DNA from: a virus
Taxonomy: Duplodnaviria; Heunggongvirae; Uroviricota; Caudoviricetes
Length of the DNA: 64,000 bases
Direction: 5' to 3' (one strand)
IMG/VR virus record: IMGVR_UViG_3300025011_000017
The notes beneath the pieces were generated by a model. It searched no databases. It had not been told where the DNA came from and was given only the letters and a program-made list of their open reading frames with translations. Numbering within the stretch: the first letter of the stretch is position 1; each line of letters opens with the position of its first letter. The position numbers and the translations under genes are program-made. Below, one piece after another: positions 29,203-53,484 of the stretch.

Positions 29203-31692
29203 TTAACGTCTAAATTCAATAAATGTTATCTTAAGATTAACTTCTTTTATTCTTCCTACCGATGGCATAGTAAACTTAGTTTTTAATTCTTTTATATCTG
29301 ATGGAGCTAATTGTCCTGTGATTGTTTTTCCCCAAGAATTTGTTCTTTCATCCCATATTTTAACAATATCCTCTTGTTCAGCAATTTCAATAATATACAT
29401 TCCCCAACTGTTTCCTGTATTTTTTATATATCTAGTTATACTATATTTTTGCAATCTCTTCATATTTTTTGGTAATGTCATAATGTAATTTATTTCATAT
29501 GGATTTGGTTGAGTTTTAGATTCTTCAGTATTATAATCAACATCTTTAATTCCTATCTTCAACGATCTAAATATTCTAAATACTGCTCTAAAAGAATTAA
29601 ATGTACTTAAATTAATTACTTGAGCCATTTCTTTATAGCCTTCAATATTTGGATGGGTGTCATCACCACTAAGATCGTATCTTAATACTCCAGTTTCAGT
29701 ATAAATATCTTCTCCATCAATTATTTTATGATCCTTTATTACAAATAGATCATACCAATCAATAATATCTAGTGCGTTAATTATACCATACTGTTTAATT
29801 CCTGCATTTAATGCTCGTAGACCATCTTTCGCTCTTGAAGGAACTATTGAATTTCTAGGTAAATTTGTTCCAATAATTGGTTTTGCACCATAAGATTTTA
29901 TTATTTCTGCTGTTTCAATTATATTATTTATTGCATGTTGAACTACATTATTTATTTCATCTTGACTCTTATCTTGTGCAGAAAATAAATCATTTGTACC
30001 AATTAATACAATTACAAATTGAGGTCTATATAACTTCATTAAACTATCAATTCCATATCTTACTTGATCCGTAATTTGTCTTCCAGTACCTTCGTTAATA
30101 ACTTCATAATCATCTGTTCCTAATCTAGTTTGTAACCAATAAGGATATTGAGATTCTTTGTTATTTTTCGTTATAACTTTTCCAGTTACTAAATCTGCCA
30201 TATACACTGTTCCACCATATTTCGGATCATAATTTGGAGCACCTGCTGTAATACTATCTCCAACGCATAATATACGCATTTTATTAATATTAGATAAAAG
30301 CTTAATATCTTTAAATATAGTATTCCAGATAATATCACTTGTTTTTATATCAAATGGTATTGCAGGATTGTGAGTTATAAATCGTAGATATGTCAAAGTA
30401 TCATCAAACGAATTATTAATTTTACTGGTATAAATATATTTATTTTCATAAGAATTACTTATTATCATTTTATAATTAGATGTTAATATACTTTTCTTAA
30501 ATACGAGCACTTTTGATCCAAATTTAATATTTCCACTTGTTGATATAGAAGGTTTAATATTTAAAACTTGAGATATATCTCTTCTTATCATTATTTTGTA
30601 ATTAATAGTTAATTTTTCATTAGTTATTAATTTTATATTAAAAACATGACCAGATTTATTACTATTGCTTATAATTTGTTTTGTATAAAAATTATCTTTA
30701 AGATTTTTTGAATAATAATTATCCTTTACTATTCTATAATCTTTTAGATTATTAAATACTCTAATTTTAATATCTGAAGAATTTAAATTTTTTGTATAAC
30801 TTAAAGATTTTGCATTTAATTGTTCTATATATTTTCTATAAGTTATTATCTTTGCTATAAATTGATTTTGTAAGTTCCTTGTATCATAATGTACGCTAAC
30901 AGCATTTTTTATTGAATATTCTGTGCTTACAGATTGATGTACATTTGATGCTAATTTGCCATCATTATAAACTGGAATTTGAACTAAATTTGAAGTTCTA
31001 AAAGAATAATTTTTATTTACCTCTTTTAAATACACTTCTCTAATTTTTACTGGTAAATTTATTTCAGTAAAACTAGTATTTAACCCAGTATTTGCGATAA
31101 ATGTTTCTGAAGAATCATATAGCTCAAAATGATCTGTGTTAGTACTCGCAATTAGATTAGACCAATACCAGGTCACGCTATTAGTATTATTAGCAATACC
31201 TAGTAAATTCAATACTCTTAAAGTAGTTACAAAAATTGGATCAGAAAATGTAGTTTCCCCAACAGGGTTTACTGATTTTACCTTTATTGAATATTGAGTA
31301 TTTTCTTCAAGATTAATTATTGTTTTATTTAAACTAAGCGTTTCTTCCCTTGTAACATAATCACTAACTTTCATAACTGAAATATAATAACTTTCTGCAT
31401 ATTCTACATTTATAAAATTTAAAGTTACTTTATTAAAATCATTTGGTATTGTAGTTATATTATTAGGAGAAGTTAAATTAAAGATATCAAATATTGGCGA
31501 AGGATATCCTTCAATATCATCATCAAATGCTACGATATATCTATGTTCTATTATTCCACTTGTAAGATTGCTATTTTCATTCCATATAATATTTAAAGCG
31601 TCATTAGAATAATCTATTCCTTCTACTAATTCTTTAATTAAAATATCATTAGGACTAGATGGCTTATAAATCCTATATCCTCTTGCTATCAC
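29203..31692 (-). CDS. FN3 + SGNH hydrolase multidomain protein
   Basis: FN3 repeats; SGNH blocks CVGDSIT, NEG, IGTND and DDTHP; GTG start. Confidence 0.8.
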   Translation of the reverse strand: MIARGYRIYKPSSPNDILIKELVEGIDYSNDALNIIWNENSNLTSGIIEHRYIVAFDDDIEGYPSPIFDIFNLTSPNNITTIPNDFNKVTLNFINVEYAESYYISVMKVSDYVTREETLSLNKTIINLEENTQYSIKVKSVNPVGETTFSDPIFVTTLRVLNLLGIANNTNSVTWYWSNLIASTNTDHFELYDSSETFIANTGLNTSFTEINLPVKIREVYLKEVNKNYSFRTSNLVQIPVYNDGKLASNVHQSVSTEYSIKNAVSVHYDTRNLQNQFIAKIITYRKYIEQLNAKSLSYTKNLNSSDIKIRVFNNLKDYRIVKDNYYSKNLKDNFYTKQIISNSNKSGHVFNIKLITNEKLTINYKIMIRRDISQVLNIKPSISTSGNIKFGSKVLVFKKSILTSNYKMIISNSYENKYIYTSKINNSFDDTLTYLRFITHNPAIPFDIKTSDIIWNTIFKDIKLLSNINKMRILCVGDSITAGAPNYDPKYGGTVYMADLVTGKVITKNNKESQYPYWLQTRLGTDDYEVINEGTGRQITDQVRYGIDSLMKLYRPQFVIVLIGTNDLFSAQDKSQDEINNVVQHAINNIIETAEIIKSYGAKPIIGTNLPRNSIVPSRAKDGLRALNAGIKQYGIINALDIIDWYDLFVIKDHKIIDGEDIYTETGVLRYDLSGDDTHPNIEGYKEMAQVINLSTFNSFRAVFRIFRSLKIGIKDVDYNTEESKTQPNPYEINYIMTLPKNMKRLQKYSITRYIKNTGNSWGMYIIEIAEQEDIVKIWDERTNSWGKTITGQLAPSDIKELKTKFTMPSVGRIKEVNLKITFIEFRR

Positions 31693-39273: not shown

Positions 39274-41232
39274 TTAAAACGAAAGTCTAGAACCAATACG
39301 AGAATTAGTATCTGTAATAAGAGAGTCTATATAAATACTAAATATTCCTGAATTTGTTGCATCTGCCCAAAAACCACCATAGTTAGGAATGCTATTTGCA
39401 TATAAGTGAGCTTGATCATAAATTTTAGTAGTAGAGCTTCCAGAAGTTACTTTTGGTATAAAATTTAGATAATTATTATCCCAAATATCTGATATATAAC
39501 CAAATACATCTGTAAAATTTGATGGTGATATAAATATTGCTCCATAACCTGATCCAGTATTATTAAATCCAACATTACCTATTTTAATTGTAATAGGAGT
39601 AGAACCAGAAGTTCCGCTTGTTACTAATCCATCAATAAACTTATTAGTATTCCCATATAAATTCTCAATTCCCCTATAACTCATAGCATGTAATCCATCA
39701 GTACCTAAATTCGATTCATTTCCAGTTATATTTCCTAATGTTGAAGTTTTTCCAGTAATAATTGATGCAGTATTTGTTGATTTAGTGTAACCTAAACCAA
39801 TTTTGCTCTGAGAATCAAAGTGACCATATTCAACTAAATACAACATCTGTACTGCTGATAATAAATTAAAATCAGTTATGCCCCAACCATTTCCTCTACG
39901 TTGAGCGATAGTTCTGAAATTACTAATCGTCAATCCTGTATATGGTTTATAATCACTCACACTACACAGTTTCCACGTTTCAGTTATGCTAGCATTATTA
40001 TCACTTGTAGTATTTCCTGTTACATGACTACTCCCATTCCACAACACACCTTCATAAGCACTAAAATATCTATAATTAACTTCTTCCGCAACTCCATCCC
40101 CATCTCTATCTCTATAAAACGCAGGATGAACAACATATCCATCTTTTTCCACATCACTTATCGAAAAACTATGTCCTGTTGCAGTACCATTTTTCTTATA
40201 CCAAAACTTAGGTATTTCAACCATTACTTGTCCGTTAGTACCATCATCTTTATACGAAGCGTCTCCATAATAAGCATTAACAACTCCTGCATCTGAAAGA
40301 TTACATCTACGCATACCATACCAAGTTGTGGGTGTAATCGTAGATTGATCTAGAGGAAGATATCCAGTTGGGGGTTGTGATGCGAATGGAGTTAATCCAA
40401 AGTTAACTGTGGTTAAATTAGCAACCATGTCGCCACAACTATGATATGGATATACTATTCCAAGTGATGCTAAGTCAGTAAATGCAGAAATTCCATTATT
40501 TTGAACTTTGCCATTTCTATAAAATTTTATACTTTTCCCATCCATATCTAAAGCTATACCTACAATATCGTTCGAGACGAAAACATCACTATACATTATG
40601 CCACTTGGTTGTTTTGAACCAGTCCAACAATATATTACTCTTGTATTAGTCTCTGAACCATCTATTAAGGAAGCACTACTATTAGCAATTCCAATAATAA
40701 CTTTGGGAGATGTACTTAATCGAACTTCCCAATACCATTTTCCAGATGAAACTCCCTTAGTCGATCTAACTGCACTATTAGTATATCCAAGACTAGATAT
40801 CGTTAAGTTTCCATTACTCAACGTAACCGCACTACCCTTGTCAGTCGCACTCCAGGTAACAGGGGTCACATAATTTACCCCAATTACAGAATTAGCATTA
40901 GGCAACTTCAAAGTATCAAATGTCATAACTACTTTATCACTTTGACCCTCATCATTAACTGCATTAACTTTAAAAGCATGAGCCGCACTTGCTGTCAATC
41001 CAGTTATTACTTGACTTGTAGAATCAATTCCTGTCAAGTTGTAAATTATATTATCATCTTTATCATAAATCTTATATCCATTCGCGCTACTATTTCCTGT
41101 CCAAGAAATAGTTGCTGTTGTTTGCGTTATATTAGAAACCATTATATTTGTTGGTTCTAAAGGGATTGTTATACTTTGTAATTGGATATACGCATCTAAG
41201 GTTTTATCCCAACTAACTTGTATATAAGACAT
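39274..41232 (-). CDS. FN3 + SPRY + C-type-lectin-fold (Mtd/FGE-like) receptor-binding protein
   Basis: ENLYGN..K.IDG and GGFW...GSRLSF C-terminus. Confidence 0.7.
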   Translation of the reverse strand: MSYIQVSWDKTLDAYIQLQSITIPLEPTNIMVSNITQTTATISWTGNSSANGYKIYDKDDNIIYNLTGIDSTSQVITGLTASAAHAFKVNAVNDEGQSDKVVMTFDTLKLPNANSVIGVNYVTPVTWSATDKGSAVTLSNGNLTISSLGYTNSAVRSTKGVSSGKWYWEVRLSTSPKVIIGIANSSASLIDGSETNTRVIYCWTGSKQPSGIMYSDVFVSNDIVGIALDMDGKSIKFYRNGKVQNNGISAFTDLASLGIVYPYHSCGDMVANLTTVNFGLTPFASQPPTGYLPLDQSTITPTTWYGMRRCNLSDAGVVNAYYGDASYKDDGTNGQVMVEIPKFWYKKNGTATGHSFSISDVEKDGYVVHPAFYRDRDGDGVAEEVNYRYFSAYEGVLWNGSSHVTGNTTSDNNASITETWKLCSVSDYKPYTGLTISNFRTIAQRRGNGWGITDFNLLSAVQMLYLVEYGHFDSQSKIGLGYTKSTNTASIITGKTSTLGNITGNESNLGTDGLHAMSYRGIENLYGNTNKFIDGLVTSGTSGSTPITIKIGNVGFNNTGSGYGAIFISPSNFTDVFGYISDIWDNNYLNFIPKVTSGSSTTKIYDQAHLYANSIPNYGGFWADATNSGIFSIYIDSLITDTNSRIGSRLSF

Positions 41233-41434: not shown

Positions 41435-42484
41435 TTAAAAAGATAGACGAGAAGAGATAAGTGCGTTACTATAATTAGACGTAGAAGTATCTAGGAAAAA
41501 TGAACCACTTTTCGTATTACTAGCATAAAAGCCCCCAAACATAAAAATACCACCTGCATACATAGAAGCCCAATCATACATTTTTGTAGTTGAACTTCCA
41601 GTGAATGTTTTTCCTATAAACCCAAATTCACTCTGATCCCAAATATCAGAACAATATCCACTTACGTTTGCAAAAGTTACAGAATAAAAGCTATACCCTA
41701 TACCAGCGTCATTAAATCCAATATTTCCTATTTTGAATGTATTTGCTTCCGTTACTAATCCGTCAATCCATTTAAATAAATTACCGTATAGATTTTCCAT
41801 ACCTCTATATGACATTGCGTGTAATCCATCTGTACCTAAATTCGATTCATTTCCAGTTATATTTCCTAAAGTAGAAGTTTTTCCTGTGATAATAGATGCT
41901 GTATTTCCGGTTGCAGTAAATCCTTTACCAATCTTTGTCTGACTGTCAAAATGTCCATATTCAACTAAGTACAACATTTGTACAGCACTAAGCAGATTAA
42001 AATCTAATATACCCCAACCATTTCCTCTTCTTTGAGCAATAGTACGAAAATTTCCAATGGTCAATCCTGCATACGGCTTATATCCACTAACACTACATAA
42101 TTTCCAACTTGAAGTAACACTAGCATTATTGTCTGCTGTTGTATTTCCAGTTATATAATTCGTTCCATCATGTAAAATACCTTCGTAAGCTGAAAAATAC
42201 CGAAACTCCACTGGCTCAGCTACTCCATCTCCATTCCTGTCTCTAAAAAAAGCAGGATGAACAGTAAAACCATCTTCAGGTTGATCAGAAATTCCGAAAG
42301 TATATCCTGTTTCCGTTGGTACTTTTTGATAATAAAACTTTGGTATTTCTACCATTACTTGTCCGTTTGAGCCATCATCTTTAAAAGTTGAATCTCCAAA
42401 ATACGCATTTACAGTTCCGTTATCCGAAAGATTACAACGTCTCATATTTGCCCATGGTGATAAGTTTGTAAAATCTATTGGCAT
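41435..42484 (-). CDS. C-type-lectin-fold (Mtd/FGE-like) receptor-binding protein, paralog of 39274-41232
   Basis: Closely similar MRRCNLSD...SRLSF domain. Confidence 0.7.
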   Translation of the reverse strand: MPIDFTNLSPWANMRRCNLSDNGTVNAYFGDSTFKDDGSNGQVMVEIPKFYYQKVPTETGYTFGISDQPEDGFTVHPAFFRDRNGDGVAEPVEFRYFSAYEGILHDGTNYITGNTTADNNASVTSSWKLCSVSGYKPYAGLTIGNFRTIAQRRGNGWGILDFNLLSAVQMLYLVEYGHFDSQTKIGKGFTATGNTASIITGKTSTLGNITGNESNLGTDGLHAMSYRGMENLYGNLFKWIDGLVTEANTFKIGNIGFNDAGIGYSFYSVTFANVSGYCSDIWDQSEFGFIGKTFTGSSTTKMYDWASMYAGGIFMFGGFYASNTKSGSFFLDTSTSNYSNALISSRLSF

Positions 42485-42561
42485 TTATAAATCACATCCT
42501 TTATTAAAATTATAATGAATCACAAATTAAATAAACCTGTGACTCACTAAATTCTAATAAC

Positions 42562-43350
42562 TTATCGTGGCAATTCTCGGTAAGCAACTTCGAAATAAAT
42601 ATCTGTTTTATACTGAGTAGGAATTCTACCTACATAATTCGGATCACTTGTAGGAACACCTTTATTCAATTGTGGTACAGCTTTTGCATAAATCGTTTGA
42701 TATAAACTAGGATCTGGACTAGCAATTGCATTACTAATTTCATTATTAATGTCATTAATTACAACGCTATTTCCTCCAACACTAGGGAAAGATCCTACAT
42801 TTAATGTTAAATAAATATGTTTAACACTAGAAGTAACAGCACTTCCACCAACTAAATCTAAAATACTACCTGTTGAACTTGAACCTTTATAATTACGTAC
42901 AACATTTACATAAGAACCTGTTGCATCTCCACCAATATTTTGTACCAAAACATCTTCATTATTAACTCCTGCTGTTACAGTTAATACTGTTCCAACATTA
43001 ATCGACAATAATCCTGTTCCACTTGGAACTGTTTTAGAAACCTCTGAAAGATACAATTTATTATTTGTACTTGCAGGAGTTCCTAATTTAATTGTTGTGG
43101 TAAAAGGTTTAGGTGTAATTGTAATTGAAGGATTTCCTGTATATTTTAAAGACATTACTGTTCCATCTGCTGAATCGAAAATAGGATCTCTTCTTCGTCC
43201 ATCGTTAAATATATAAAATGTTGTTGGAGCAACTAAAGTAATATCATCTATACTTCCATCTTGCTCAATTGTTAAAGGATTACTTGCAGAAATAATGTTT
43301 GAATATACATTATTTACAACTGTAAAGTTTTTAACTAATACTAATGCCAT
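42562..43350 (-). CDS. hypothetical virion-associated protein
   Basis: Start moved from 43392 to the MALVLV codon, which has an AAGGGGGA SD; paralogous to 43367-44008. Confidence 0.6.
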   Translation of the reverse strand: MALVLVKNFTVVNNVYSNIISASNPLTIEQDGSIDDITLVAPTTFYIFNDGRRRDPIFDSADGTVMSLKYTGNPSITITPKPFTTTIKLGTPASTNNKLYLSEVSKTVPSGTGLLSINVGTVLTVTAGVNNEDVLVQNIGGDATGSYVNVVRNYKGSSSTGSILDLVGGSAVTSSVKHIYLTLNVGSFPSVGGNSVVINDINNEISNAIASPDPSLYQTIYAKAVPQLNKGVPTSDPNYVGRIPTQYKTDIYFEVAYRELPR

Positions 43351-43366
43351 AATTAATTCCCCCTTA

Positions 43367-44008
43367 TTAAAATAAAATACGTGGGTACTCATCAGCGAGT
43401 ATTCTAAAATAAGTATCTTTCTTTATTTGAGTTTTTAACGCTCCAGTAGAAATTTTTATATATAATTTAACTGGTTTCCAACTTTCTATTATGTCTGGTA
43501 ATGAAATTGGTGCGTTAATAAAGTCATCGTCATTTCCTGTTAAACTTAGAAATATATGATCTGGTATAGCGTCTACAAAAGTGCCATTTGGTATTGTTAA
43601 TCTAGTAGTAGAATTTTTAGCTCTGTCTACAACTAAATTATTTCCAGAAATATTTCTTATCCAAATTTCTTCTTGAAGCGTATTAATTGGATCAGTAATA
43701 AGTTTAGTTCCTTGATTTAACATCGAACCATCTTCAACACTAAACTGCGTACTTTCTGCGGAAATAGGTTGACCTGTGATAGTTGTAATTCTTGTGCGAA
43801 CCCCTTTAGGGATAAAGGATATGTTGCGATATTCAAGAAGTAAACTTAAATCTTCACTTGAACCATCATCGAATATATATACTATAATATTATCTGAAGT
43901 ACCTGCTGAACTATGATTTGTAATAACAGGTATATCACTATCTCCCACAATTCCTACCCAAAATTCTGTTAAATTTAAATCACTAGAAGTAGATACCCTT
44001 ATCGTCAT
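43367..44008 (-). CDS. hypothetical virion-associated protein
   Basis: GAGGTG SD; paralogous to 42562-43350. Confidence 0.6.
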   Translation of the reverse strand: MTIRVSTSSDLNLTEFWVGIVGDSDIPVITNHSSAGTSDNIIVYIFDDGSSEDLSLLLEYRNISFIPKGVRTRITTITGQPISAESTQFSVEDGSMLNQGTKLITDPINTLQEEIWIRNISGNNLVVDRAKNSTTRLTIPNGTFVDAIPDHIFLSLTGNDDDFINAPISLPDIIESWKPVKLYIKISTGALKTQIKKDTYFRILADEYPRILF

Positions 44009-44012
44009 CTTA

Positions 44013-44597
44013 TCACCTCATTATTTTATACGATTCATATTTTTCAATTGATTCTCCTATATCAAACCACTTATCTTTATAAATATATTTGTCTGATCTA
44101 ATTTTACTCAGAACATCATCTTCTAAAGAACAAATACCTTCTGGAATAACATCTATTAACTTGATATTTACTGCACAAACACCAATTGAAACAAAATTGT
44201 TATCATAAGAAATAGTTATTAATTCTTTTGTTCTATTATGTTCTTTAAGCAAATGATTTAAATTAACGTCTGCTATAGTGTCACCATTCATTAAAATAAA
44301 AGTATCATCTTTTAACAAATCTTTGCATAACCTAATTGCTCCACCAGTTCCTAAATTTAAATCATACGAATAACTTATATTGACACCAAATTCTTCACCA
44401 TTGCCAAAATACTTCATAATAACTAGGCTCAAATTTCCAACAGCCAAGATAATTTCAGTAATTCCATTTTTCTTTAGATATTCAATTTGATGCACCAAAA
44501 CTGGTTTTCCACCTATTGGTAACATTCCTTTAGGAGTATTTTTAGCAATATCTCCAAGTCTAGTCGCTTTTCCGCCACATAAAATTACACATTGCAT
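44013..44597 (-). CDS. hddC: D-glycero-alpha-D-manno-heptose 1-phosphate guanylyltransferase
   Basis: LCGGKATRL...PKGML nucleotidyltransferase motifs, NGDT, WFDIG; adjacent to gmhA, gmhB and hddA. Confidence 0.8.
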   Translation of the reverse strand: MQCVILCGGKATRLGDIAKNTPKGMLPIGGKPVLVHQIEYLKKNGITEIILAVGNLSLVIMKYFGNGEEFGVNISYSYDLNLGTGGAIRLCKDLLKDDTFILMNGDTIADVNLNHLLKEHNRTKELITISYDNNFVSIGVCAVNIKLIDVIPEGICSLEDDVLSKIRSDKYIYKDKWFDIGESIEKYESYKIMR

Positions 44598-45085
44598 AAA
44601 ATTTTTTCAACTGCTTTCAGCAAATTAGGAAATACATAATCTGCATTATTAATCTCATTTCCTATTTTAATAGTTTTTACTCCTGCATTTTTACCGCACA
44701 AAATATCAGAATCTTTATCACCAATCATCCAACTTTTAGACAAATCTATATTATAATGTTCACTAGCTTTAATAATCATATAAGGATTTGGTTTTCTGCA
44801 TTGACAATTATCTTCAGGAGTATGTGGGCAATAAAATACATTTTTTAATTTATTACCTAATAAATTATTTAATTTACAATTTATTTTAAATAAGTCATAA
44901 TGAGTAAAATAACCTCTTGAAATTCCTGATTGATTAGTAATAATTATTGGAATAAATTCATTATCAACAATTATTTGAAGTGCTTCTTTAACACCTTCGA
45001 TTAAAACAATGTCTTTATGTTTAGATATATAACCGTAATCATGATTTAATACTCCATCTCTATCAAGAAAAAATGCTTTATTCAT
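44585..45085 (-). CDS. gmhB: D,D-heptose 1,7-bisphosphate phosphatase
   Basis: HAD DRDG, TNQSG, Zn site CPH...CQCRKP, GDKDSD. Confidence 0.92.
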   Translation of the reverse strand: MNKAFFLDRDGVLNHDYGYISKHKDIVLIEGVKEALQIIVDNEFIPIIITNQSGISRGYFTHYDLFKINCKLNNLLGNKLKNVFYCPHTPEDNCQCRKPNPYMIIKASEHYNIDLSKSWMIGDKDSDILCGKNAGVKTIKIGNEINNADYVFPNLLKAVEKILCNV

Positions 45086-45633
45086 TAAAATAATTCATCT
45101 TCTATTATTTCGCATATCATATGAATTGCTAAAAGATATGCTTCTTGTATTCTAGCTGTATCTATAGATGGCATAGTTAAAGAATTTTCGTATTTATTAT
45201 CAACTAAACCAGTAATTAAAATAGGTATAGCTTCTAATTCTTCCGCTTTATCTAATGCATTTAATATATTTATTGATTTACCACTAGTAGTTATACCAAT
45301 AACTATATCTCCTTTATTAGCATAAGCTATTACCTGCCTAGAGTATATTTCATCATAATTATAATCATTTCCAATTGCAGTAATAACTGCATTATTACTT
45401 GATAATGCTATTGCGTTTAATCCTTTTCGATCAAACTTAAATTTATTTACTAATTCTGCAACAAAATGTTCAGCATCAACTGCGCTTCCACCATTTCCGC
45501 ATATTAATACTTTATTTCCGTTTCTATAAGCAGTTATAATTATATTTGCAACTTTATCAATTTTATCTAATTTAAAAATTAAATTTGATACAGTTCTAAC
45601 ATTTTCTCTTAAAACTTCTGTTAAATTGACCAC
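45085..45633 (-). CDS. gmhA: sedoheptulose 7-phosphate isomerase
   Basis: CGNGGS..DAEHFVAE, GNDY, TTSGKS, RIQE....IH; Zn-ligand H/E/Q/H positions retained. Confidence 0.92.
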   Translation of the reverse strand: MVNLTEVLRENVRTVSNLIFKLDKIDKVANIIITAYRNGNKVLICGNGGSAVDAEHFVAELVNKFKFDRKGLNAIALSSNNAVITAIGNDYNYDEIYSRQVIAYANKGDIVIGITTSGKSINILNALDKAEELEAIPILITGLVDNKYENSLTMPSIDTARIQEAYLLAIHMICEIIEDELF

Positions 45634-46613
45634 GATTGAACACCTCTATTTTCAAAATGAAAGTCTAAAATAGTTCCTCCTATTTCAGTTAAAGCATTTT
45701 TTAATAAATCTTTATCATTTGGACAATAAAAAAGAAGGTATCCTCCTCCTCCTGCTCCACAATTTCGTACTCCAGAAGCACCATTATTTAGACCAACTTT
45801 ACAAAGTTTATCTATTCGAAGAGTTGTAATACCACTTGTTAATTTCTTTTTAATATTCCATGTTTCTCCAAACAATTCAGAAAACCTAATTAAATTATTA
45901 TTAGAAATTTCTATTCTCATTTTATAAACTAATTCTTTGATTTCATGTAAATATTCAAAATTATTTTTATAAGAATTGATTTGTTTTTCTATAATATCTT
46001 CTCCTACTCTAGTTATACCTGTATAGCATAAGACAAGATTATTTTCTAACTCATTTATAAAATTATCTTTTATTCTCAATGGATTAACAACAATATTTTC
46101 TTTTTCAAATGTAATATAATTAAATCCTCCAAAAGAAGTTGCAAATTGATCTTGGTATCCGCCTTTTATACCTAGTATTTTACGTTCGATATAGTATGCA
46201 AGATGTGCAATATTATCTTTGCTATAATTATTAATACCTAAATACTTACAAAATAATTCTATTAAACAAACACTTAAAGAAGATGATAATCCCAATCCAC
46301 TTCCTACAGGAACATCACTTTCGATATATAAGTCGAATCCTTCTGTGAACTCTTTAAGCATATTCATATATATCATTACAGATTTAACTATTTTTAACTC
46401 TCCGTCAACTACATAAGTAAATTTTTCTGTAACTCCTAAATCTTTAGAATAGATAGTTATTTCCTTATCTTCTCTAGGTTTAAGTGTAGCGTAAACATAT
46501 TTATTAATTGTCGTACTAATTACGCATCCACCAAACTCACTAACATATGGTTCAATATCTGTTCCACCACCAGAAAATGATATTCTTAATGGTGCTTTTG
46601 ATCTATATATCAT
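45621..46613 (-). CDS. hddA: D-glycero-alpha-D-manno-heptose 7-phosphate kinase (GHMP family)
   Basis: APLRISFSGGGTD, PVGSGLGLSS, GGYQDQ and CGAGGGG motifs. Confidence 0.9.
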   Translation of the reverse strand: MIYRSKAPLRISFSGGGTDIEPYVSEFGGCVISTTINKYVYATLKPREDKEITIYSKDLGVTEKFTYVVDGELKIVKSVMIYMNMLKEFTEGFDLYIESDVPVGSGLGLSSSLSVCLIELFCKYLGINNYSKDNIAHLAYYIERKILGIKGGYQDQFATSFGGFNYITFEKENIVVNPLRIKDNFINELENNLVLCYTGITRVGEDIIEKQINSYKNNFEYLHEIKELVYKMRIEISNNNLIRFSELFGETWNIKKKLTSGITTLRIDKLCKVGLNNGASGVRNCGAGGGGYLLFYCPNDKDLLKNALTEIGGTILDFHFENRGVQSWSI

Positions 46614-46633
46614 TTAAAACACTCCTTATATCC

Positions 46634-47725
46634 TTAAATTCCTAAAACATCTTTTAAATTCTGTGCTATCTGTAAGTAATCAAATTTTAAACTATCTTGT
46701 TTGGCTTGTTTCGCTTTACTTTTAGCTTCTTCTCTGTTATTATATACGTGTCGAAGTAAATACTGGAGATGATCTATAGAAGGTTCAGCCCATTCCATAT
46801 ACGACTGAAAGTCTCCAGAATACCACTGACTCTCTACTGGTCTTAACTGATATTCTAATAAATAACTGTTTTCATTTGTTATAAATTCTGTTTGACCAGA
46901 CCAATTAGTTGCTATAACTGGCAATTCATTTGCCATTGCTTCTAGAACTACACGATTATACCCTTCACATCTTGAAGGCGAAATAAACGCATCTGCGTTA
47001 GAAAACAAATCTGCTATTTTTTCGTATGGTAATGAGGTTGTATTTACATATACTGGATATGTTCTTTTATATTTATTTTTAACAGATACAATATAAGTTA
47101 ATATAGCTGAAGAAGGTAGTATTTCGTAGTTCAATGAAGATGTTTTTATGGTTAAAGAAACGTCATCATTATTATCAAATTCTCTGAAGAAAGCTTCTAA
47201 TAATATATCATAAGATTTTCTAGGCAACCACTGAAATAAAGAAAAGAAATTAAACGTATTACTATCTTTTAATACTTTAGGTTTTATGAGAGAGAAATCT
47301 ATTCCTTCTCTAACAATAACCACTGGTTTATTTATGTCATTTTCTAATATATCTCTATTAAAGTGACTTGGCACAATAATTGTATTAATATCTGCACTAT
47401 TATTGATTAAATTTAACCATTGTTCAGGGTAAGAACTCGTTTCCCAAACAGTAGACGCAAAAGTCTTTTTAGCACCATGCCAAGGTTTAAATTCTGGAAG
47501 GATAGTTCTATTAAGATAAATGAAATCATCTTCAAGAGGTGTATCTATAGCTTTTTTTAGCATTTCTCTTGTGTCAGCATTTTCAATGGTATATAAGTAT
47601 TCTATAGGTTGGTCAACTATCTTTAGGTTTACGCCAAGTTCTAAAAGTCCTTTAATATATAATAGATTCGTATTTACATATCCACTACAACCATATATAC
47701 CACATCTTAAAGCCAATTGAGTCAT
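46634..47725 (-). CDS. glycosyltransferase, GT-B/GT4-like
   Basis: PRKSYDILL and EGYNRVVLEAMANELPVI (EX7E) motifs. Confidence 0.9.
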   Translation of the reverse strand: MTQLALRCGIYGCSGYVNTNLLYIKGLLELGVNLKIVDQPIEYLYTIENADTREMLKKAIDTPLEDDFIYLNRTILPEFKPWHGAKKTFASTVWETSSYPEQWLNLINNSADINTIIVPSHFNRDILENDINKPVVIVREGIDFSLIKPKVLKDSNTFNFFSLFQWLPRKSYDILLEAFFREFDNNDDVSLTIKTSSLNYEILPSSAILTYIVSVKNKYKRTYPVYVNTTSLPYEKIADLFSNADAFISPSRCEGYNRVVLEAMANELPVIATNWSGQTEFITNENSYLLEYQLRPVESQWYSGDFQSYMEWAEPSIDHLQYLLRHVYNNREEAKSKAKQAKQDSLKFDYLQIAQNLKDVLGI

Positions 47726-47742
47726 ATTTCACCTTCTATCCC

Positions 47743-48891
47743 TTAAAGAGTATTAAATCCTTCTAATCCATCTTTTTCTATTATTCCTGCTAATTCTCTG
47801 ATCACATATTCCCATAAAGGAGTAATATATTTCCAATCAAATGCCTCGCAATATTTTCGACACTCTTTACCAATTACAGGTAAAACACTTCTGTTTTTAT
47901 AATAAATATTAAGTTTTTCTGTTAAATCAGAACTACTTATTATCTGTCTCTCAGTATCCCATAGTGGCAAAAAATATGAACCAACTGTATTAATTCTCAT
48001 ATTTCTGGACACAAATTCTTTACAAGCAGAATAATCAGTCACCAAAACTGGCACTTCACATAATTGTGCTTCTAATGAAGGAAGCATTAAACCTTCTCCG
48101 CTAGTAGATGAAGCGTAAATATCCATAAGATTGTATATTTCAACAAATGTTTTTTCATCAACACCTGTTTCAACATTTAAATCTTTTGTAATATAAACTT
48201 TATCTTGTATATTATTTCTCATAATATGTTCATATAAATTATGTCCTACATCAATTGGTTTAGTATGAAGATATAAAACTACATCATTTTTATCTTTAGC
48301 GAAATCAGCAAATGATTTTATTAAAGCAGGGAAATTTTTTCTTTCAGAATTACGTCCAACTGATCCTACTACAAATTTACCACTTAATCCATACTTCCGT
48401 TTTATCGCTTCTTTATTCATTGGCCTGAATACTTCTGGATCTACTCCATGATAGATTAAACGTGTATCTTCTCTTTGAGTAGCGTTTATTGTTGCATTTA
48501 ATCCTGTTTTTGAATAAGTTATAGGCATATCCATTTGATTAACAATGTACTTTTGAGCAGTTGTAAGTTGTTCGGAATCGACTGGAAAATATCCCAAAAA
48601 ACGAAAAAATCTATTCTTGTATTGTCCTATATAACTGATGTTCATTAAATCTCCATACGCAAACACGATGTCTGGAAGTAAATCATCTACAACTTTAGTA
48701 AATATTGTTTTCCCAAAGTCATTGTTTGGTACTGGATGAAGTTTGTATTTATAATCTATCTCTTCTTTAAGACCCCAAGCAATTTGTTCTACGTGATGTC
48801 CTAAAGAAAGAAAGATGCCAGCTAAACGTCTTATAATTACGGAATATCCTGTATTATACAAAGGGCAATCTGATATAAGTAATATTTTCAA
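47743..48891 (-). CDS. glycosyltransferase, GT-B/GT4-like
   Basis: HGVD, RNSERKNFP and EGLMLPSLEAQLC (EX7E) motifs. Confidence 0.9.
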   Translation of the reverse strand: MKILLISDCPLYNTGYSVIIRRLAGIFLSLGHHVEQIAWGLKEEIDYKYKLHPVPNNDFGKTIFTKVVDDLLPDIVFAYGDLMNISYIGQYKNRFFRFLGYFPVDSEQLTTAQKYIVNQMDMPITYSKTGLNATINATQREDTRLIYHGVDPEVFRPMNKEAIKRKYGLSGKFVVGSVGRNSERKNFPALIKSFADFAKDKNDVVLYLHTKPIDVGHNLYEHIMRNNIQDKVYITKDLNVETGVDEKTFVEIYNLMDIYASSTSGEGLMLPSLEAQLCEVPVLVTDYSACKEFVSRNMRINTVGSYFLPLWDTERQIISSSDLTEKLNIYYKNRSVLPVIGKECRKYCEAFDWKYITPLWEYVIRELAGIIEKDGLEGFNTL

Positions 48892-48893
48892 TT

Positions 48894-49352
48894 TTAATCA
48901 ATTCCTTCAAACCTATTTTTAAGAAATTTTGCTGGATTACCTGCCCATATCTCGAAAGCAGGAATTGTTTTTCCTGTCAATACAGATCCTCCTGCAAGTA
49001 CAGAACCTTCTTCCATAATACTTCCTGCATTAATAACACAATTACAACCAATCCAACAACCATCTGAGATTATTACAGGTTTTGAATTATATGGTTGATG
49101 TTTTATCCAAGATTCTTTTCCTCTATATTCGTGATTAGCGTCCCTGAGAGTGGTTTTTTCAGCTATTATTGCTCCATTTCCAATTCTTACATATTCATTA
49201 CAAACAATCATTGTCCATTTACCAATAAAAACATCATGTCCAATATCTAAATGTCCACCATCAGCGTGAAGATAATAATCTCCAAGATGTTGAACAAATC
49301 CATCCTTCATGGATACTTTACCACCGTTATTTTCATATATTTCAAGTGACAT
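48894..49352 (-). CDS. sugar O-acetyltransferase (hexapeptide/LbH)
   Basis: Hexapeptide repeats, DANH and WAGNPAK motifs. Confidence 0.88.
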   Translation of the reverse strand: MSLEIYENNGGKVSMKDGFVQHLGDYYLHADGGHLDIGHDVFIGKWTMIVCNEYVRIGNGAIIAEKTTLRDANHEYRGKESWIKHQPYNSKPVIISDGCWIGCNCVINAGSIMEEGSVLAGGSVLTGKTIPAFEIWAGNPAKFLKNRFEGID

Positions 49353-49397
49353 ATAAAACCTCCTTTAAGGGAATACTGAAAGTAGAGGTGAATAATT

Positions 49398-49472
49398 ATG
49401 AAAAGGGTGTTTGGTATAATTGTTATTTTGTCTCCATTTATAGGAGCATGGTGGTATTGGATAAATAATTAA
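49398..49472 (+). CDS. 24-aa hydrophobic peptide antisense to the glycan cluster (type I toxin-like)
   Basis: AGAGGTG SD 7 nt before ATG; MKRVFGIIVILSPFIGAWWYWINN*; its stop overlaps the stop of the convergent GT gene; absent from the supplied ORF track. Confidence 0.55.
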   Translation: MKRVFGIIVILSPFIGAWWYWINN

Positions 49473-50377
49473 AGAGAATCCATTACTTCTTTCCAAAAGT
49501 TAGTAGCTATTGTTTGCCAACAGAATTTATTACGAACTTCTTTGATTTCGTTCGCTGTCATCTTTGTATTATCTGAATTATTAAAATGCTTTATGATATT
49601 ATTAGTCATATCAATATCATATTCACCTTCTGGTATAAATAATGAAAAATCTTCAAACCATTTACGATAATATATACTGTTAAAACAAATCGGTTTTGCA
49701 CCACAAATAGCACCTTCGATGACAGGTAGCTCGAATCCTGCACCAGACCTCATTCCAGAAACAAATTTACATGACATATACCATTCTTTAAGTTCATCAT
49801 CAGAAATCCACTTTTCAAAGGTGTGAAAATTAGAATCAAATACTCTTCCCTGACGCAAGAATTGATGAAACCTAAAATCAGTATGCAACATTTTACCACC
49901 AGTTAATCTACAACTATCGTATATTTCTGAGTGATGTTCGCTGTCATAAAAACTGAAACTAATTATAGTATTATCTCTCTTGCTATTAATCGCTTTTACA
50001 GCATCTACATTGAATATTTCTTCATCAAATCCCCAAGGTGCGTAAACATGATTGGTATTTTGATTAACATTTGTATATCCAAGAATATCTAATGGATGAA
50101 ATGTATATGTCATTTTAAGTAAAGGATTAGAAAATAAATCATTAAAATACGATTTATCTTGTTGTAATTCACTTATTAAGAATATCATTGGTTTTTTACA
50201 ATTATGTAAATACCAATTTAAATCATTTAAATATTGATGATGAAATATTACAAAATTAGCTTCTTCATAACTATTTACAAATTCAATTGAATTAGGACTA
50301 TGTTTTCTTAGGTTTTTTGATATCCTAGCACCACCTTGTCGAAGCTCCCCACCATAAGTTTCCCAACACTTAATCAT
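49469..50377 (-). CDS. glycosyltransferase, GT-B/GT4-like
   Basis: PWGFD and GFELPVIEGAICG motifs. Confidence 0.8.
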   Translation of the reverse strand: MIKCWETYGGELRQGGARISKNLRKHSPNSIEFVNSYEEANFVIFHHQYLNDLNWYLHNCKKPMIFLISELQQDKSYFNDLFSNPLLKMTYTFHPLDILGYTNVNQNTNHVYAPWGFDEEIFNVDAVKAINSKRDNTIISFSFYDSEHHSEIYDSCRLTGGKMLHTDFRFHQFLRQGRVFDSNFHTFEKWISDDELKEWYMSCKFVSGMRSGAGFELPVIEGAICGAKPICFNSIYYRKWFEDFSLFIPEGEYDIDMTNNIIKHFNNSDNTKMTANEIKEVRNKFCWQTIATNFWKEVMDSL

Positions 50378-51327
50378 ATTATTACCTCATAACGCCAATA
50401 ATCCAAAACTTCTTTCAGCGTACTATAAAAATCTTCTTCCATTTCCCAACCAATACTTTTTAACTTAGAGTTATCCCCTAACTCCAACGGAATATCAGAT
50501 TTTCTTAACTTATTTTCGTCAATTTCAACAGTAATATCCGCACTAGACATTCCTATAAGACAATCTAATATATCACTCATTTTTCTTGGAATTCCAGAAC
50601 AAATATTATAAGATTCTCCATTTGTATTTTCATCACTTTGAGACAATATCCATAATGCTTTTACACAATTTTTTGCCGAAAGAAAGTCACGCTCACTTGT
50701 TAAATTCCCTACCTTTATGATTCCTTTACTTCCTCTTCTCTCAATCATAGCTATTTGTTTAGCAAAACTATTAACACTACTGTTCTCTCCCTGTCTTCGA
50801 CCAATCTGTATATATGGTCTAACATTTATGACAGGCAAGCAATAATTCTTAAAGTATTGATATCCCATTGTTTCCGTTGCAACTTTTGTCACAGCATATA
50901 AACTTAACGGATGAAATTGCGTTTCTTCATCCGTGGGATACTTGCCATTTACGTCACCGTAAACTGCCGCACTTGATGCCAAAATAATCTTTTTTGGAAT
51001 ATAATTTGCTAATTTAATAGATTCTAAAAGATTAAAAGTTCCATTAATATTAGTATCAATGGTCATTTGAGGATTGCTTTCAGATATTTTTGGATAACCT
51101 TGTCCTGCCAGTGAAAAAATTATGTCTGGTTTTATTTCATTAATTATATTTAGAACTGCCACAAAATCTGTTATGTCTAAATCTCTGTAACTTACAATTT
51201 CTGGTCTATACGCTTTACTTCTAGGGCGTTTACTTGCAAATATCTCATATTCTTTATGGTTTTTATAAATATAATCAATTAAATGACTTGCTATCATTCC
51301 ATTACCACCTGTAATAAATACCTTCAT
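50374..51327 (-). CDS. extended SDR nucleotide-sugar epimerase/reductase, GMD/RMD-like
   Basis: ITGGNGMIA, SSAAVYG, YAVTK and GNLTSERDF motifs. Confidence 0.85.
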   Translation of the reverse strand: MKVFITGGNGMIASHLIDYIYKNHKEYEIFASKRPRSKAYRPEIVSYRDLDITDFVAVLNIINEIKPDIIFSLAGQGYPKISESNPQMTIDTNINGTFNLLESIKLANYIPKKIILASSAAVYGDVNGKYPTDEETQFHPLSLYAVTKVATETMGYQYFKNYCLPVINVRPYIQIGRRQGENSSVNSFAKQIAMIERRGSKGIIKVGNLTSERDFLSAKNCVKALWILSQSDENTNGESYNICSGIPRKMSDILDCLIGMSSADITVEIDENKLRKSDIPLELGDNSKLKSIGWEMEEDFYSTLKEVLDYWRYEVII

Positions 51328-51433
51328 CCCATCACCTCTTCTACCAATTTAACGGAATAATCATTGCTAATTTAAAATAATAAAATATTACGAAATTCTT
51401 AATATCTTTTAAAATATTCAAATGCATTTCTCC

Positions 51434-51976
51434 TTAAATTTTTATTAACGCTTTATAAAAATTATCTGCAATTTTACGTTGTCCTTCGTCATTCAGATGA
51501 TGTAAATCCTCTAAGAAATAACTAATATCTTTTGTATCAGTATAAGTATCTACTAATTCAATTCCATTCATATAACAAAATACATTTAATAAATTATTAT
51601 ATTCCACTATCATAGGTCGTATATTTCTAACAATTTTACTTGGCACATTTTCCTGAATATACGGCGTTGTAGAAATCACTATTTTCAAATCATGTTTCTT
51701 AATATATGTAATTAATTTGTAATAATCTGAAAATATCTCTTTAAACGATCTTCCTAATATTAAATCATTTATGCCAACCAAAATTGTTACAACATTAATA
51801 TATTCTACTGGAATAATGTTTTTTGCAACTTTATAAACATCGTCAATTATCGAACCTGCTTTTCCTGCATTAATTACATTAAATTCTTTTGTTTCTGCTA
51901 ATATTTGAGGATAATATACTAAATTTGGCAGTAATTCTGCATAAGTTATACTATCTCCAAGACATAGAATGTTCAT
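51434..51976 (-). CDS. SGNH/GDSL hydrolase
   Basis: CLGDSIT, NAGKAG, VGINDL and DLHH catalytic blocks. Confidence 0.85.
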   Translation of the reverse strand: MNILCLGDSITYAELLPNLVYYPQILAETKEFNVINAGKAGSIIDDVYKVAKNIIPVEYINVVTILVGINDLILGRSFKEIFSDYYKLITYIKKHDLKIVISTTPYIQENVPSKIVRNIRPMIVEYNNLLNVFCYMNGIELVDTYTDTKDISYFLEDLHHLNDEGQRKIADNFYKALIKI

Positions 51977-51996: not shown

Positions 51997-52028
51997 AAAA
52001 TAAAAGGAGGTTGATTTTACTCAACCTC
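51997..52028 (-). terminator. intrinsic terminator after the capsid genes
   Basis: GAGGTTGA-gtaaaa-TCAACCTC followed by CTTTTATTTT on the - strand. Confidence 0.7.
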
Positions 52029-52472
52029 TTATATCTTACCGATCTTTTGACTTTCATCTTCTTCAATTTCATCAATTACTTTTATTCCAGTAGCATCCTC
52101 AATAAGCTTTAATTTACTTAATGGTAAATCCAATGTCTTAGCTGTTGTTACAACTTTTTCAAAAGCATGTCTCTCTGAGATATTAGATAGAAAATTCTTT
52201 AAGTCTGGCATTTTACCACTTAATGCTTTAATTACATCTTCTGTTTTTAAAGCATTTGGATTTGGTTTTCCTAATCCCATATTTTCCATAATATCTTTAT
52301 TTTCGCAAATCAAAACACCTTCTCTAAAGAGGGAACATACATTATTGGTATAATATATGTCATCCTCTTCAAGCATGTTAAAAGAATTTGCAGGAACTTT
52401 ACTTTCTATTTTTCCATCCATTGAAATTAAACCTACCGGAAAGTTATTGTTATTAAAAACTTTATACTTCAA
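52029..52472 (-). CDS. head-associated hypothetical protein
   Basis: Immediately after the major capsid gene, as in SPbeta-like head modules. Confidence 0.55.
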   Translation of the reverse strand: MKYKVFNNNNFPVGLISMDGKIESKVPANSFNMLEEDDIYYTNNVCSLFREGVLICENKDIMENMGLGKPNPNALKTEDVIKALSGKMPDLKNFLSNISERHAFEKVVTTAKTLDLPLSKLKLIEDATGIKVIDEIEEDESQKIGKI

Positions 52473-52500: not shown

Positions 52501-53484
52501 TTAGGATAATGAACTGTCTTTATATAATCCTAAGAATTTACGGTATCCAACGACACCAACACCAACATATTTATCCATACGGACTTCATACATTTTGTCG
52601 TTGATTGAAGTTGCTTCCATTGCAGATACTTGTCCTTCAAGAACGACCTTTAACGGACGATTAGCAGAAGCACCAGTAGGAACAATATAAAGTAAATCTT
52701 TACGAAGAACAGTGTTAGTTAAGTTTTCTTGAACAAGTTGATTGTTCATCTTAACAATATTTGCAGTTTTATAGGTTCCAAGATGACCGTTTTGATTGTG
52801 TTCTTTTACGTATTCTGGATTTACAATACTATTAAAACCAGTTAATGCAGTAAATTTAGAAATACACTCGATATCTCCCATAATACTTACCCCACCCAAA
52901 CGGGCTAAAGCATAAATTATAGGATCAATAACAGTTGCGACAACACCATTTCCTGTCCCATAGTTAGGAGCAGACATAGCAGAAAAAGCATCGTAAAGAG
53001 TTTTTTGAACTTTAGCGGCAATGGCCATTTCCATACGGAATGCTGATTCAGTTGCTACCTTAGAGAAGTCTGTTTTACCACTAAGTAAATCATAAAAGTT
53101 AATCGCAGGACGAACAGAAACTTCATCAGTTTCTAAGGTCGTATACGTGTGACCAACTTTACTACGCTCAGTAGTACTTCCTTTAGCTTGGAAGAAAGCT
53201 TTTACTCCAGGTAGATCAACTTGGAATTGAGCTTTTTGTCCAAAGTCGATATGTTTAACGTCTGCAATAGTTGGTAGATAGTTTAAAGAAAGATCAAGTT
53301 GATTATCTACAATAAGACGAAGGATTTGTGCGATTTCATAACGATTGTTAGGGTTAGGATTAGCACATAATTCCTTGATAAAATCGTTAGCGTCTTTTAA
53401 TTCACTTGCAACAACATTTTGAGGTGCAGTTAAATTTGCACTAAATAGTTCTACGATAGGTGATTTAGCATTAATTTCTGACAT
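52501..53484 (-). CDS. major capsid protein
   Basis: 327 aa, strong GGAGG SD, marked high-expression codon bias, position after protease and decoration genes. Confidence 0.85.
   Translation of the reverse strand: MSEINAKSPIVELFSANLTAPQNVVASELKDANDFIKELCANPNPNNRYEIAQILRLIVDNQLDLSLNYLPTIADVKHIDFGQKAQFQVDLPGVKAFFQAKGSTTERSKVGHTYTTLETDEVSVRPAINFYDLLSGKTDFSKVATESAFRMEMAIAAKVQKTLYDAFSAMSAPNYGTGNGVVATVIDPIIYALARLGGVSIMGDIECISKFTALTGFNSIVNPEYVKEHNQNGHLGTYKTANIVKMNNQLVQENLTNTVLRKDLLYIVPTGASANRPLKVVLEGQVSAMEATSINDKMYEVRMDKYVGVGVVGYRKFLGLYKDSSLS

Follow-up and report, generated by a model that had tools for sequence, protein, structure and literature searches.

A putative mobile glycosylation cassette with a heptose-donor pathway behind the head genes of an SPbeta/E3-like phage

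Introduction

Chlorovirus PBCV-1, for its capsid glycans, and mimivirus, for its fibrils, encode both nucleotide-sugar synthesis and the transferases that decorate their own particle, and the autotransporter heptosyltransferases TibC and AAH place heptose on serine residues of a folded cytoplasmic protein with no lipid carrier. Among tailed phages, phage-encoded glycosyltransferases (GTs) glycosylate the capsid and tail-tube proteins of mycobacteriophages (PMC12363180, PMC11256854); virion glycosylation in Che8, Corndog and Myrna is attributed to Freeman et al. 2023 as cited in those two papers. Heptosylation of phage DNA has also been demonstrated (preprint 10.1101/2023.12.21.572611), and Caulobacter phage Cr30 and T4-like cyanophages (SynMITS9220M01, Bellamy) carry genes annotated as an hddA-like kinase, gmhA, a nucleotidyltransferase, a short-chain dehydrogenase/reductase (SDR) and a GT. 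In this work we analysed a cassette of ten genes within a 64,000-nucleotide stretch (hereafter the window) of the Caudoviricetes record IMGVR_UViG_3300025011_000017. The cassette couples four predicted GDP-heptose pathway enzymes to three putative GTs and three tailoring enzymes, lies behind the head genes of the phage and is followed by two paralogous virion-type proteins, p213 and p262.

The position of GT genes within phage genomes varies. The initial annotation of the window, made from its letters, had taken mycobacteriophage GTs encoded among structural genes as precedent. This does not hold for F1-cluster mycobacteriophages, whose GT genes are found close to the genome’s 3’ end (PMC11256854). 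Some other actinophages do have GT genes inside the structural operon; in Microbacterium phage Magritte a GT4-like gene separates the genes for the tail terminator and the major tail protein. In large Streptomyces phages tandem GTs are located ahead of the portal region.

Results

The cassette recurs with two virion-type proteins and an exchangeable sugar supply

The source record comprises 136,658 bases (IMG/VR, approximately 69% complete, GC content approximately 29%), and the same phage is also carried by groundwater-metagenome contigs of 179–183 kb. The ten open reading frames (ORFs) of the initial annotation were confirmed in their coordinates, minus strand, order and position next to the capsid gene, and Pfam and NCBIfam searches bore out the enzyme assignments of all but a 302-residue protein. 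The co-oriented ORFs run from 51976 to 44013 on the minus strand, with the SGNH esterase gene first and the HddC gene last, and are as tightly packed as had been described, with spacing of −13 to +20 nt apart from gaps of 52, 106 and 116 nt. The 106-nt gap, which separates the SGNH gene from that of the SDR, is largely taken up by a 28-codon ORF (51341–51427, minus strand) with an AAGGAG ribosome-binding site and a hydrophobic product.

Relatives were found by exact-sequence look-up and profile search; single-protein HddA or capsid queries in IMG/VR matched nothing, and alignments were needed. The synteny search that had been suggested for capsid-adjacent heptose genes found the cassette in six or more further lineages of uncultured phages, whose loci are given L numbers here. 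The capsid protein of L008 and L009 is 98% identical to that of the window phage, HddA is 82% identical in L092, and HddA is approximately 50% identical in L006/L007, L093/L097, L094 and L096. A YonB-family capsid gene and a GP18-like gene followed by the same cassette order were present in L005, L008, L009, L093 and L094, and in the contig fragments L006, L007, L092 and L096. The order was constant: SDR, a 302-residue GT (GT302), an optional O-methyltransferase, acetyltransferase, two GT4 enzymes, HddA, GmhA, GmhB and HddC, then a protein of 213–223 amino acids (aa), one of 254–262 aa, giant fn3/CBM proteins and an SGNH-containing protein of approximately 830 aa (1,156 aa in L096). In 80 further IMG/VR loci with a YonB capsid, a search reaching 10 kb from the capsid gene met none of the ten cassette genes; Geobacillus virus E3 is also without them, and the cassette DNA had no match among GenBank phages.

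In one lineage, L095, a 674-aa NTP-transferase/phosphomannomutase (PGM-PMM) fusion stands in place of the four heptose genes. Because L095 swaps its sugar supply yet keeps homologues of GT302, the acetyltransferase, both GT4 enzymes (GT4a and GT4b), p213 (46% identical) and p262, the conserved core would appear to be the transferases with the p213 pair, and the sugar supply exchangeable.

The p213 gene (43367–44008, minus strand) begins 4 nt after the HddC gene and is followed by that of p262 (42562–43350, minus strand; an alternative ORF start at 43392 gives 276 aa), a paralogue of p213 (hhalign probability 98.9%, E 1.3e-17). Homologues of p213 numbered 16 in 5.8 billion clusters, and all of those with readable context sit behind such a cassette. 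p262 is conserved in L006 and L093–L096, with a partial copy at the L092 contig end. The AlphaFold2 model of p213, calculated from the 16 sequences, is all-beta with a predicted local distance difference test (pLDDT) score of 87.9. Clear structural relatives were limited to a central barrel, residues ~69–150, on which Foldseek and a Foldseek-independent aligner agreed. At Z 12.2 and 29% identity the barrel aligned with one chain of the capsid entry for Vibrio phage VP1, at Z 11 with the portal-tail complex of phage GP4 and at Z 10.5 with the domain inserted in the tail tube of Mystique; the P22 I-domain, proteins of the baseplate and tail tip, and many tail fibres in their N-terminal domains are further relatives. 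p213, a candidate acceptor, is by this model a virion-type surface module and not an enzyme. The model of p262 was poor (pLDDT 49.6), as was that in the ESM Atlas, and PHROG and Pfam searches of p213, p262, the presumed connector and the tail proteins matched almost nothing.

The cassette and the head genes differ in their divergence. The L093 capsid is only 25% identical to that of the window phage and the cassette genes approximately 50%, which suggests that the cassette does not simply co-diverge with the head. Between the window phage and L008, synonymous divergence (dS) was 0.2–0.3 for the capsid and SGNH genes and approximately 1 for the SDR and acetyltransferase genes, with amino-acid identities of 64% and 44% for the latter two proteins; these tailoring genes have been swapped by recombination. 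Taken together, the allele replacements in the SDR and the acetyltransferase, the gain of an O-methyltransferase and the different sugar-supply gene of one lineage make up a pattern of variation that resembles surface-glycan loci changing structure.

Four diverged enzymes of a probable GDP-heptose pathway

HddA (45621–46613, minus strand), a predicted D-glycero-alpha-D-manno-heptose 7-phosphate kinase of the GHMP family, matched NF049969 over its full length (E 7e-75; 252 bits against a cut-off of 600) with its GHMP motif intact, and its nearest named database relatives are labelled D-glycero-alpha-D-manno-heptose-7-phosphate kinase by their source. A GHMP kinase of this kind, as against HldE or HldA, marks the alpha/GDP branch of the pathway. 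GmhA (45085–45633, minus strand), the putative sedoheptulose 7-phosphate isomerase of the SIS family, matched TIGR00441 (E 2e-47; 161 bits against a cut-off of 209) with an intact GNGGS..D..H motif. GmhB (44585–45085, minus strand), a putative heptose 1,7-bisphosphate 7-phosphatase (HAD-IIIA), matched NF006506 (E 4e-44) and NF050049 (E 2.5e-36), both below cut-off, and retains the DxDG motif and the Cys/His cluster. The last gene (44013–44597, minus strand) encodes a shortened HddC-like sugar-1-phosphate, probably guanylyl, transferase, in which matches to NF052502 (E 2e-29) and NF049965 (E 5e-28) cover the N-terminal 137 residues only; among solved chains it lies closest to GDP-mannose pyrophosphorylases and to HddC 5xhw. 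For all four proteins the NCBIfam models of their own pathway were best or near-best, yet every score fell below the equivalog cut-off, which marks GmhA, HddA, GmhB and HddC as diverged members of the pathway families.

The HddC protein has 194 aa compared with 211 aa in L006, and a 21-aa in-frame deletion, common to L092, removes the substrate-binding YG...EK hairpin. The ratio of non-synonymous to synonymous substitution (dN/dS) was 0.32 for HddC, 0.17 for HddA, 0.19 for GmhA, 0.17 for GmhB and 0.18 for p213. These values suggest a gene that is relaxed, not dead, and on which purifying selection persists. A pseudogene was ruled out by the ratio of 0.32 and by the sharing of the deletion between two lineages at 79% DNA identity. 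In L092 the HddC homologue (L092:2081–2647), preceded by a good Shine-Dalgarno sequence, has ATT in place of ATG, which is either an uncommon start codon or an early sign of decay.

Three putative glycosyltransferases with tailoring enzymes

GT302 (49469–50377, minus strand; 302 aa) had no match in Pfam, gave only chance matches when its single sequence was compared with the PDB and, by tblastn, had none among GenBank phages. Its family comprises approximately 400 homologues of ~290 aa. The family profile matched the MshA-type GT4 7qsg (E 8.5e-7) across the EX7E region, PF00534 was matched by 9 of 42 members, and the ESM Atlas model gave TM-scores of 0.75–0.84 to Glycos_transf_1 (GT1/GT4) clusters. 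The proposal of a third GT in the cassette is upheld in this way, with GT302 best described as a predicted compact GT4-like (GT-B) transferase, recognisable by profile and fold only. In this phage the first Glu of its EX7E motif is replaced by Ala and the second is kept. GT4a (47743–48891, minus strand; PF00534, PF13692) and GT4b (46634–47725, minus strand; PF00534, PF13692, PF20706) carry the EX7E motif at residues 266–274 and 254–262 respectively; neither matched a PDB sequence at E 1e-3.

The tailoring enzymes are a hexapeptide-repeat O-acetyltransferase of WbbJ/WcaF-like type (48894–49352, minus strand; PF00132, NF007240 E 2e-19), a small, soluble SGNH/GDSL esterase of 180 aa (51434–51976, minus strand; PF13472 E 2e-16, GDS and DxxH motifs) and an extended SDR expected to act on a GDP-sugar (50374–51327, minus strand; PF16363 E 2e-52). 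The free esterase is confined to this sub-lineage, being present in L008 and L009 and absent from L006, L093, L094 and L096. The best PDB matches of the SDR were the Aneurinibacillus GDP-4-keto-6-deoxymannose reductase Rmd (2pk3, E 4e-51) and the C. jejuni GDP-heptose 4,6-dehydratase (7us5, E 2e-43). The S/T-x-E site of dehydratases reads S-S-E in 7us5 and T-S-E in 1db3; at this site the SDR has S-A-A in the window and S-A-S in both L008 and L006, with YxxxK kept in all three alleles. Assignment as a GDP-heptose 4,6-dehydratase was rejected, the catalytic Glu being absent, and the enzyme looks like one of reductase/epimerase type. The initial statement that catalytic motifs are retained across the cassette thus stands for the SGNH enzyme, GT4a, GT4b, HddA, GmhA and GmhB, but not for the HddC hairpin, the first Glu of GT302 or the Glu of the SDR.

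Soluble enzymes between a conserved terminator and the p213 pair

None of the twelve cassette proteins (ten enzymes, p213 and p262) has a hydrophobic stretch of membrane-helix strength, and all twelve are cytoplasmic and soluble. A transmembrane scan of the 136.7 kb record found TerC as the sole polytopic membrane protein, and no Bac_transf initiating transferase was present. The reported lack of a flippase, polymerase or initiating enzyme was confirmed in the record and extends to ~30 kb more of the phage. The hallmarks of Gtr/Oac/Wzy-type seroconversion (flippase, bactoprenol GT, membrane acetyltransferase, polymerase) are likewise absent from the 136.7 kb record.

Enzymes that would prepare a DNA base for sugar attachment were also sought. 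A ThyA-type hydroxymethylase (PF00303) and a C5 methyltransferase (PF00145) are absent from the record, the former also from a related 90.9 kb record, and TET/JBP (PF12851) was unmatched, which is weak evidence as the TET model matched no control genome. No base-hydroxylating enzyme was among the Pfam calls in ~30 kb more of the phage, the last ~20 kb of the 179-kb scaffold lying beyond this search, and ThyX for ordinary thymidine monophosphate synthesis is present. A related contig, ~20–30 kb beyond the start of the record, encodes a 338-aa GmrSD_N (DUF262) protein (L111:8268–9284), of a family that includes nucleases attacking sugar-modified DNA.

At the junction where the GP18-like gene gives way to the cassette lies a terminator-shaped hairpin with a U-tract (52007–52028, minus strand; −15.5 kcal/mol, z −3.2). 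Hairpins with U-tracts but unlike stem sequences occupy the same junction in L008, L093, L094 and L006; counting the window phage, all five lineages in which this junction is available have one. At the other end, a weak AT-rich terminator-like hairpin 3’ of p262 (42513–42549, minus strand) is not kept in relatives, and in L093 the gene after the p262 homologue begins 14 nt on.

Head-module context and neighbouring genes

Ahead of the cassette, the minus-strand order is large terminase, portal, a YonD-like protein of 496 aa, a protein of 146 aa, the YonB-family capsid protein and a 147-aa GP18-like protein. All of these, from the terminase and portal through the GP15-, GP16-, GP17- and GP18-like head genes, are syntenic with Geobacillus virus E3 at 36–57% identity. 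The major capsid gene (52501–53484, minus strand; phrog_4088 E 1e-47, PF27364), outside the cassette, encodes a protein 51% identical to E3 GP17, and synteny ends exactly at the GP18-like head-module gene (52029–52472, minus strand; 39% identity to E3 GP18), beyond which the cassette begins. In E3 the next gene is only 14 nt past GP18. In the tail region, an integrase-like gene (21758–22777, minus strand), a homologue of E3 GP28 at 27% identity, immediately precedes that of the tape measure. A search for p213 in prophages of 185,579 species-representative genomes, limited by its patterns, found no copy.

Beyond p262, a 349-aa protein (41435–42484, minus strand) and the C-terminal half of a 652-aa protein (39274–41232, minus strand) share the phrog_5302 ‘tail protein’ domain. 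Both end in SRLSF and are paralogous modules of this sub-lineage only, one of the two being fused to fn3 and SPRY domains. An 829-aa protein (29203–31692, minus strand) with an SGNH/GDSL domain at residues 474–692 is kept in nearly all cassette-bearing lineages, giving this phage two SGNH enzymes, one free and one within a large virion-type protein.

In relatives the island holds other genes. HNH endonuclease genes stand at differing positions between cassette genes in two diverged lineages (L006:1792–2730, L006:6002–7117, L094:5258–6193) and are probably homing endonucleases riding in the cassette. Directly past the p254 gene of L094 are a Mom-like gene (PF25680), a Vut_1 queuosine-precursor transporter and QueC (L094:11689–13499), and this DNA-modification cargo makes the island site a general insertion hot spot. 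L095 carries three tandem ART-PolyVal (ADP-ribosyltransferase-like) genes and ThyX a few kb from its cassette (L095:16210–18643).

Discussion

The observation behind the initial annotation is confirmed, with corrections, and its interpretation in terms of the virion is partly supported. The locus is best explained as a mobile, self-contained glycosylation cassette that an SPbeta/E3-like phage carries in its late (head) operon. For its function, the reading we prefer is the cytoplasmic glycosylation of phage particle proteins, which we hold with about even confidence and no greater because the acceptor is named from gene linkage.

In the proposed mechanism, GmhA, HddA, GmhB and HddC would convert host sedoheptulose 7-phosphate to a nucleoside diphosphate (NDP)-heptose, judged by family membership most likely GDP-D-glycero-alpha-D-manno-heptose. 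The SDR may then change its stereochemistry by transient oxidation, or reduce a keto-intermediate; 4,6-dehydration would be impossible. A short glycan would be assembled by the three soluble GT4-type transferases and O-acetylated by the hexapeptide acetyltransferase, with the small SGNH enzyme possibly trimming or moving the acetyl group. Expression could come from read-through of the terminator behind the capsid and GP18-like genes, which would yield catalytic amounts of enzyme relative to capsid proteins. The acceptor is most likely a particle protein. By linkage p213 and p262 are the best candidates, because they always stand behind the transferases and p213 has the fold of virion surface accessory domains, and the giant fn3/SPRY fibre-like proteins come second. 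A more specific and more tentative proposal is that of a mobile glyco-decoration module of low-GC Gram-positive-type hosts, in which the three GT4 enzymes and the acetyltransferase O-glycosylate p213 and p262 themselves in the cytoplasm and the sugar supply is exchangeable, being GDP-heptose in most lineages and a hexose-1-phosphate pathway in one.

Several observations weigh against glycosylation of the particle. The persistence of the p213/p262 pair behind the transferases, even where the sugar is swapped, supports the original idea of a virion target, but no acceptor signature was found. Neither of the acceptors first proposed shows the expected signs: the capsid protein, at 327 aa in a family of 321–337 aa, has neither an extension nor a Ser/Thr tail when set against relatives free of the cassette, no virion protein has a Ser/Thr-rich tail or tract, and the neighbouring fibre-like proteins are only mildly enriched in Ser/Thr/Asn (26–32% compared with 23% overall). 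The cassette encodes no dehydratase, and its lone SDR, not itself one, has no evident dehydratase partner. HddC is without its substrate-binding hairpin and is the fastest-evolving of the four pathway genes (dN/dS 0.32 compared with 0.17–0.19). The site also hosts non-structural cargo (HNH genes in L006 and L094; Mom, Vut_1 and QueC in L094), and position alone is therefore weak evidence. The lack of a flippase, from which a cytoplasmic acceptor had been argued, is real but makes a weak argument, since soluble GTs can act on lipid-linked or teichoic-acid intermediates of the host, which its own machinery exports. The system is known here from the genes of an uncultured phage, and the sequencing runs that contain the region are DNA runs of the source groundwater study only, with no RNA run. 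Finally, WbbJ/WcaF-type acetyltransferases and GT4 enzymes are usual in cell-surface polysaccharide loci, and the heptose islands of Cr30 and the cyanophages lie away from structural genes.

These last two points equally favour the alternative that survives best, remodelling of the host envelope, in which the soluble GTs would heptosylate a host glycoconjugate at the inner membrane face and the host machinery would export it. S-layer glycan precursors, wall teichoic acid or capsule intermediates are candidate targets, and the benefit could be a block on superinfection or progeny kept from sticking to debris. GDP-heptose is a known donor for S-layer glycans and capsules, and soluble GTs of prophages, of the TarP type, modify teichoic acid with no phage flippase. 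The mosaicism of the alleles is like that of O-antigen and capsule loci, and the carbohydrate-binding and SGNH domains of the island’s large proteins indicate that host glycans matter to this phage. Against this, no initiating transferase, flippase, polymerase or membrane protein was found, no prophage copy appeared in the pattern-limited search of species genomes, and the cassette follows the capsid genes, no promoter being seen for it alone, with a conserved terminator at its boundary. The strict linkage to two virion-type proteins, even with the sugar supply swapped, also speaks against it, and overall we regard host-envelope remodelling as unlikely, though the most probable of the alternatives.

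A soluble or small-molecule glycoconjugate, or a drain on, or alteration of, host heptose and pentose-phosphate metabolites with an auxiliary metabolic or counter-defence role, is considerably less probable. Such a role would fit the match of GT4b to PF20706, ‘GT4 in conflict systems’ (32.7 bits), the action of GT4 enzymes such as MshA and BshA on small molecules and the acceptance of unrelated cargo by the island region. It would leave the p213/p262 linkage coincidental, but a conserved order and linkage in at least seven lineages, including one with a swapped sugar pathway, is unlikely by chance, and three transferases with tailoring enzymes indicate an oligosaccharide. DNA hypermodification, in which one or more GT-B enzymes would heptosylate a hydroxylated DNA base of the phage and so evade restriction, is the least probable of all, for although a GT-B phage cluster yields mono- and di-heptosyl-5-hydroxymethylcytosine (5hmC) and some such clusters lie near structural genes (10.1101/2023.12.21.572611), sugar transferases acting on DNA resemble MshA/BshA-type GT4 folds as GT302 does, and L094 has DNA-modification genes in the same island, three transferases and a sugar O-acetyltransferase suit a glycan better than a base and the absence of hydroxylating enzymes described above speaks against it.

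If the virion is the target, phage particle glycosylation would reach beyond actinophages to large SPbeta/E3-like environmental phages, and tailed phages, like giant viruses, could bring their own sugar-donor pathway. A swappable supply with mosaic tailoring would then point to selection on glycan structure, through adsorption, stability or evasion of hosts and predators. Should p213 and p262 prove to be the acceptors, this would be the first phage system to supply its acceptor proteins as well as an unusual sugar donor, and the first case of a protein heptosylated by GT4 enzymes. If instead the host envelope is the target, the cassette would represent an unusual lytic-cycle surface remodelling with no membrane component. 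As a compact, soluble twelve-gene unit with adjoining candidate acceptors, the system is directly testable heterologously and is a potential toolkit for cytoplasmic heptosylation.

The arrangement had been put forward as undescribed. Phage-encoded heptose genes and DNA heptosylation were already on record (Cr30, cyanophages; 10.1101/2023.12.21.572611), which tempers that claim, but a heptose pathway inside a head module and linked to dedicated virion-type proteins was not found in the literature or GenBank phages searched. The Cr30 and cyanophage islands differ in lying among non-structural genes of phages with Gram-negative hosts, in an HddA identity of 29–34% and in having no p213-type proteins. 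The bacterial pathway of the Aneurinibacillus thermoaerophilus S-layer and of Campylobacter, Yersinia and Burkholderia joins the same four enzyme families in one cluster, whereas here they are phage-borne, score below cut-off, have lost the HddC hairpin and come with no dehydratase, membrane or export component. Clusters for DNA hypermodification (the heptosyl-5hmC ‘contig 53’; arabinosyl-5-hydroxycytosine in RB69 and DLP3) similarly combine a sugar-activation pathway with GT-B transferases, but always include a base-hydroxylating enzyme, of which none was found here. TibC and AAH make protein heptosylation with no lipid carrier feasible; their donor is ADP-heptose and their family the GT9-like BAHT rather than GT4, and no BAHT homologue was seen in this phage.

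The closest functional likeness is to the mycobacteriophages, whose own GTs act in the cytoplasm, ahead of lysis, on the proteins of their capsid and tail. No nucleotide-sugar pathway is reported for those phages in the papers cited here, so that the donors would be those of the actinobacterial host. The present phage, known from its genes alone, has its own four-enzyme heptose pathway, tailoring enzymes and linked virion-type proteins. In this respect it is nearer to the giant viruses, in which donor synthesis and transferases are both virus-encoded and independent of host glycosylation; those are viruses of eukaryotes, with other sugars and mostly GT-A enzymes, whereas here a tailed phage pairs GT4 enzymes with a heptose donor.

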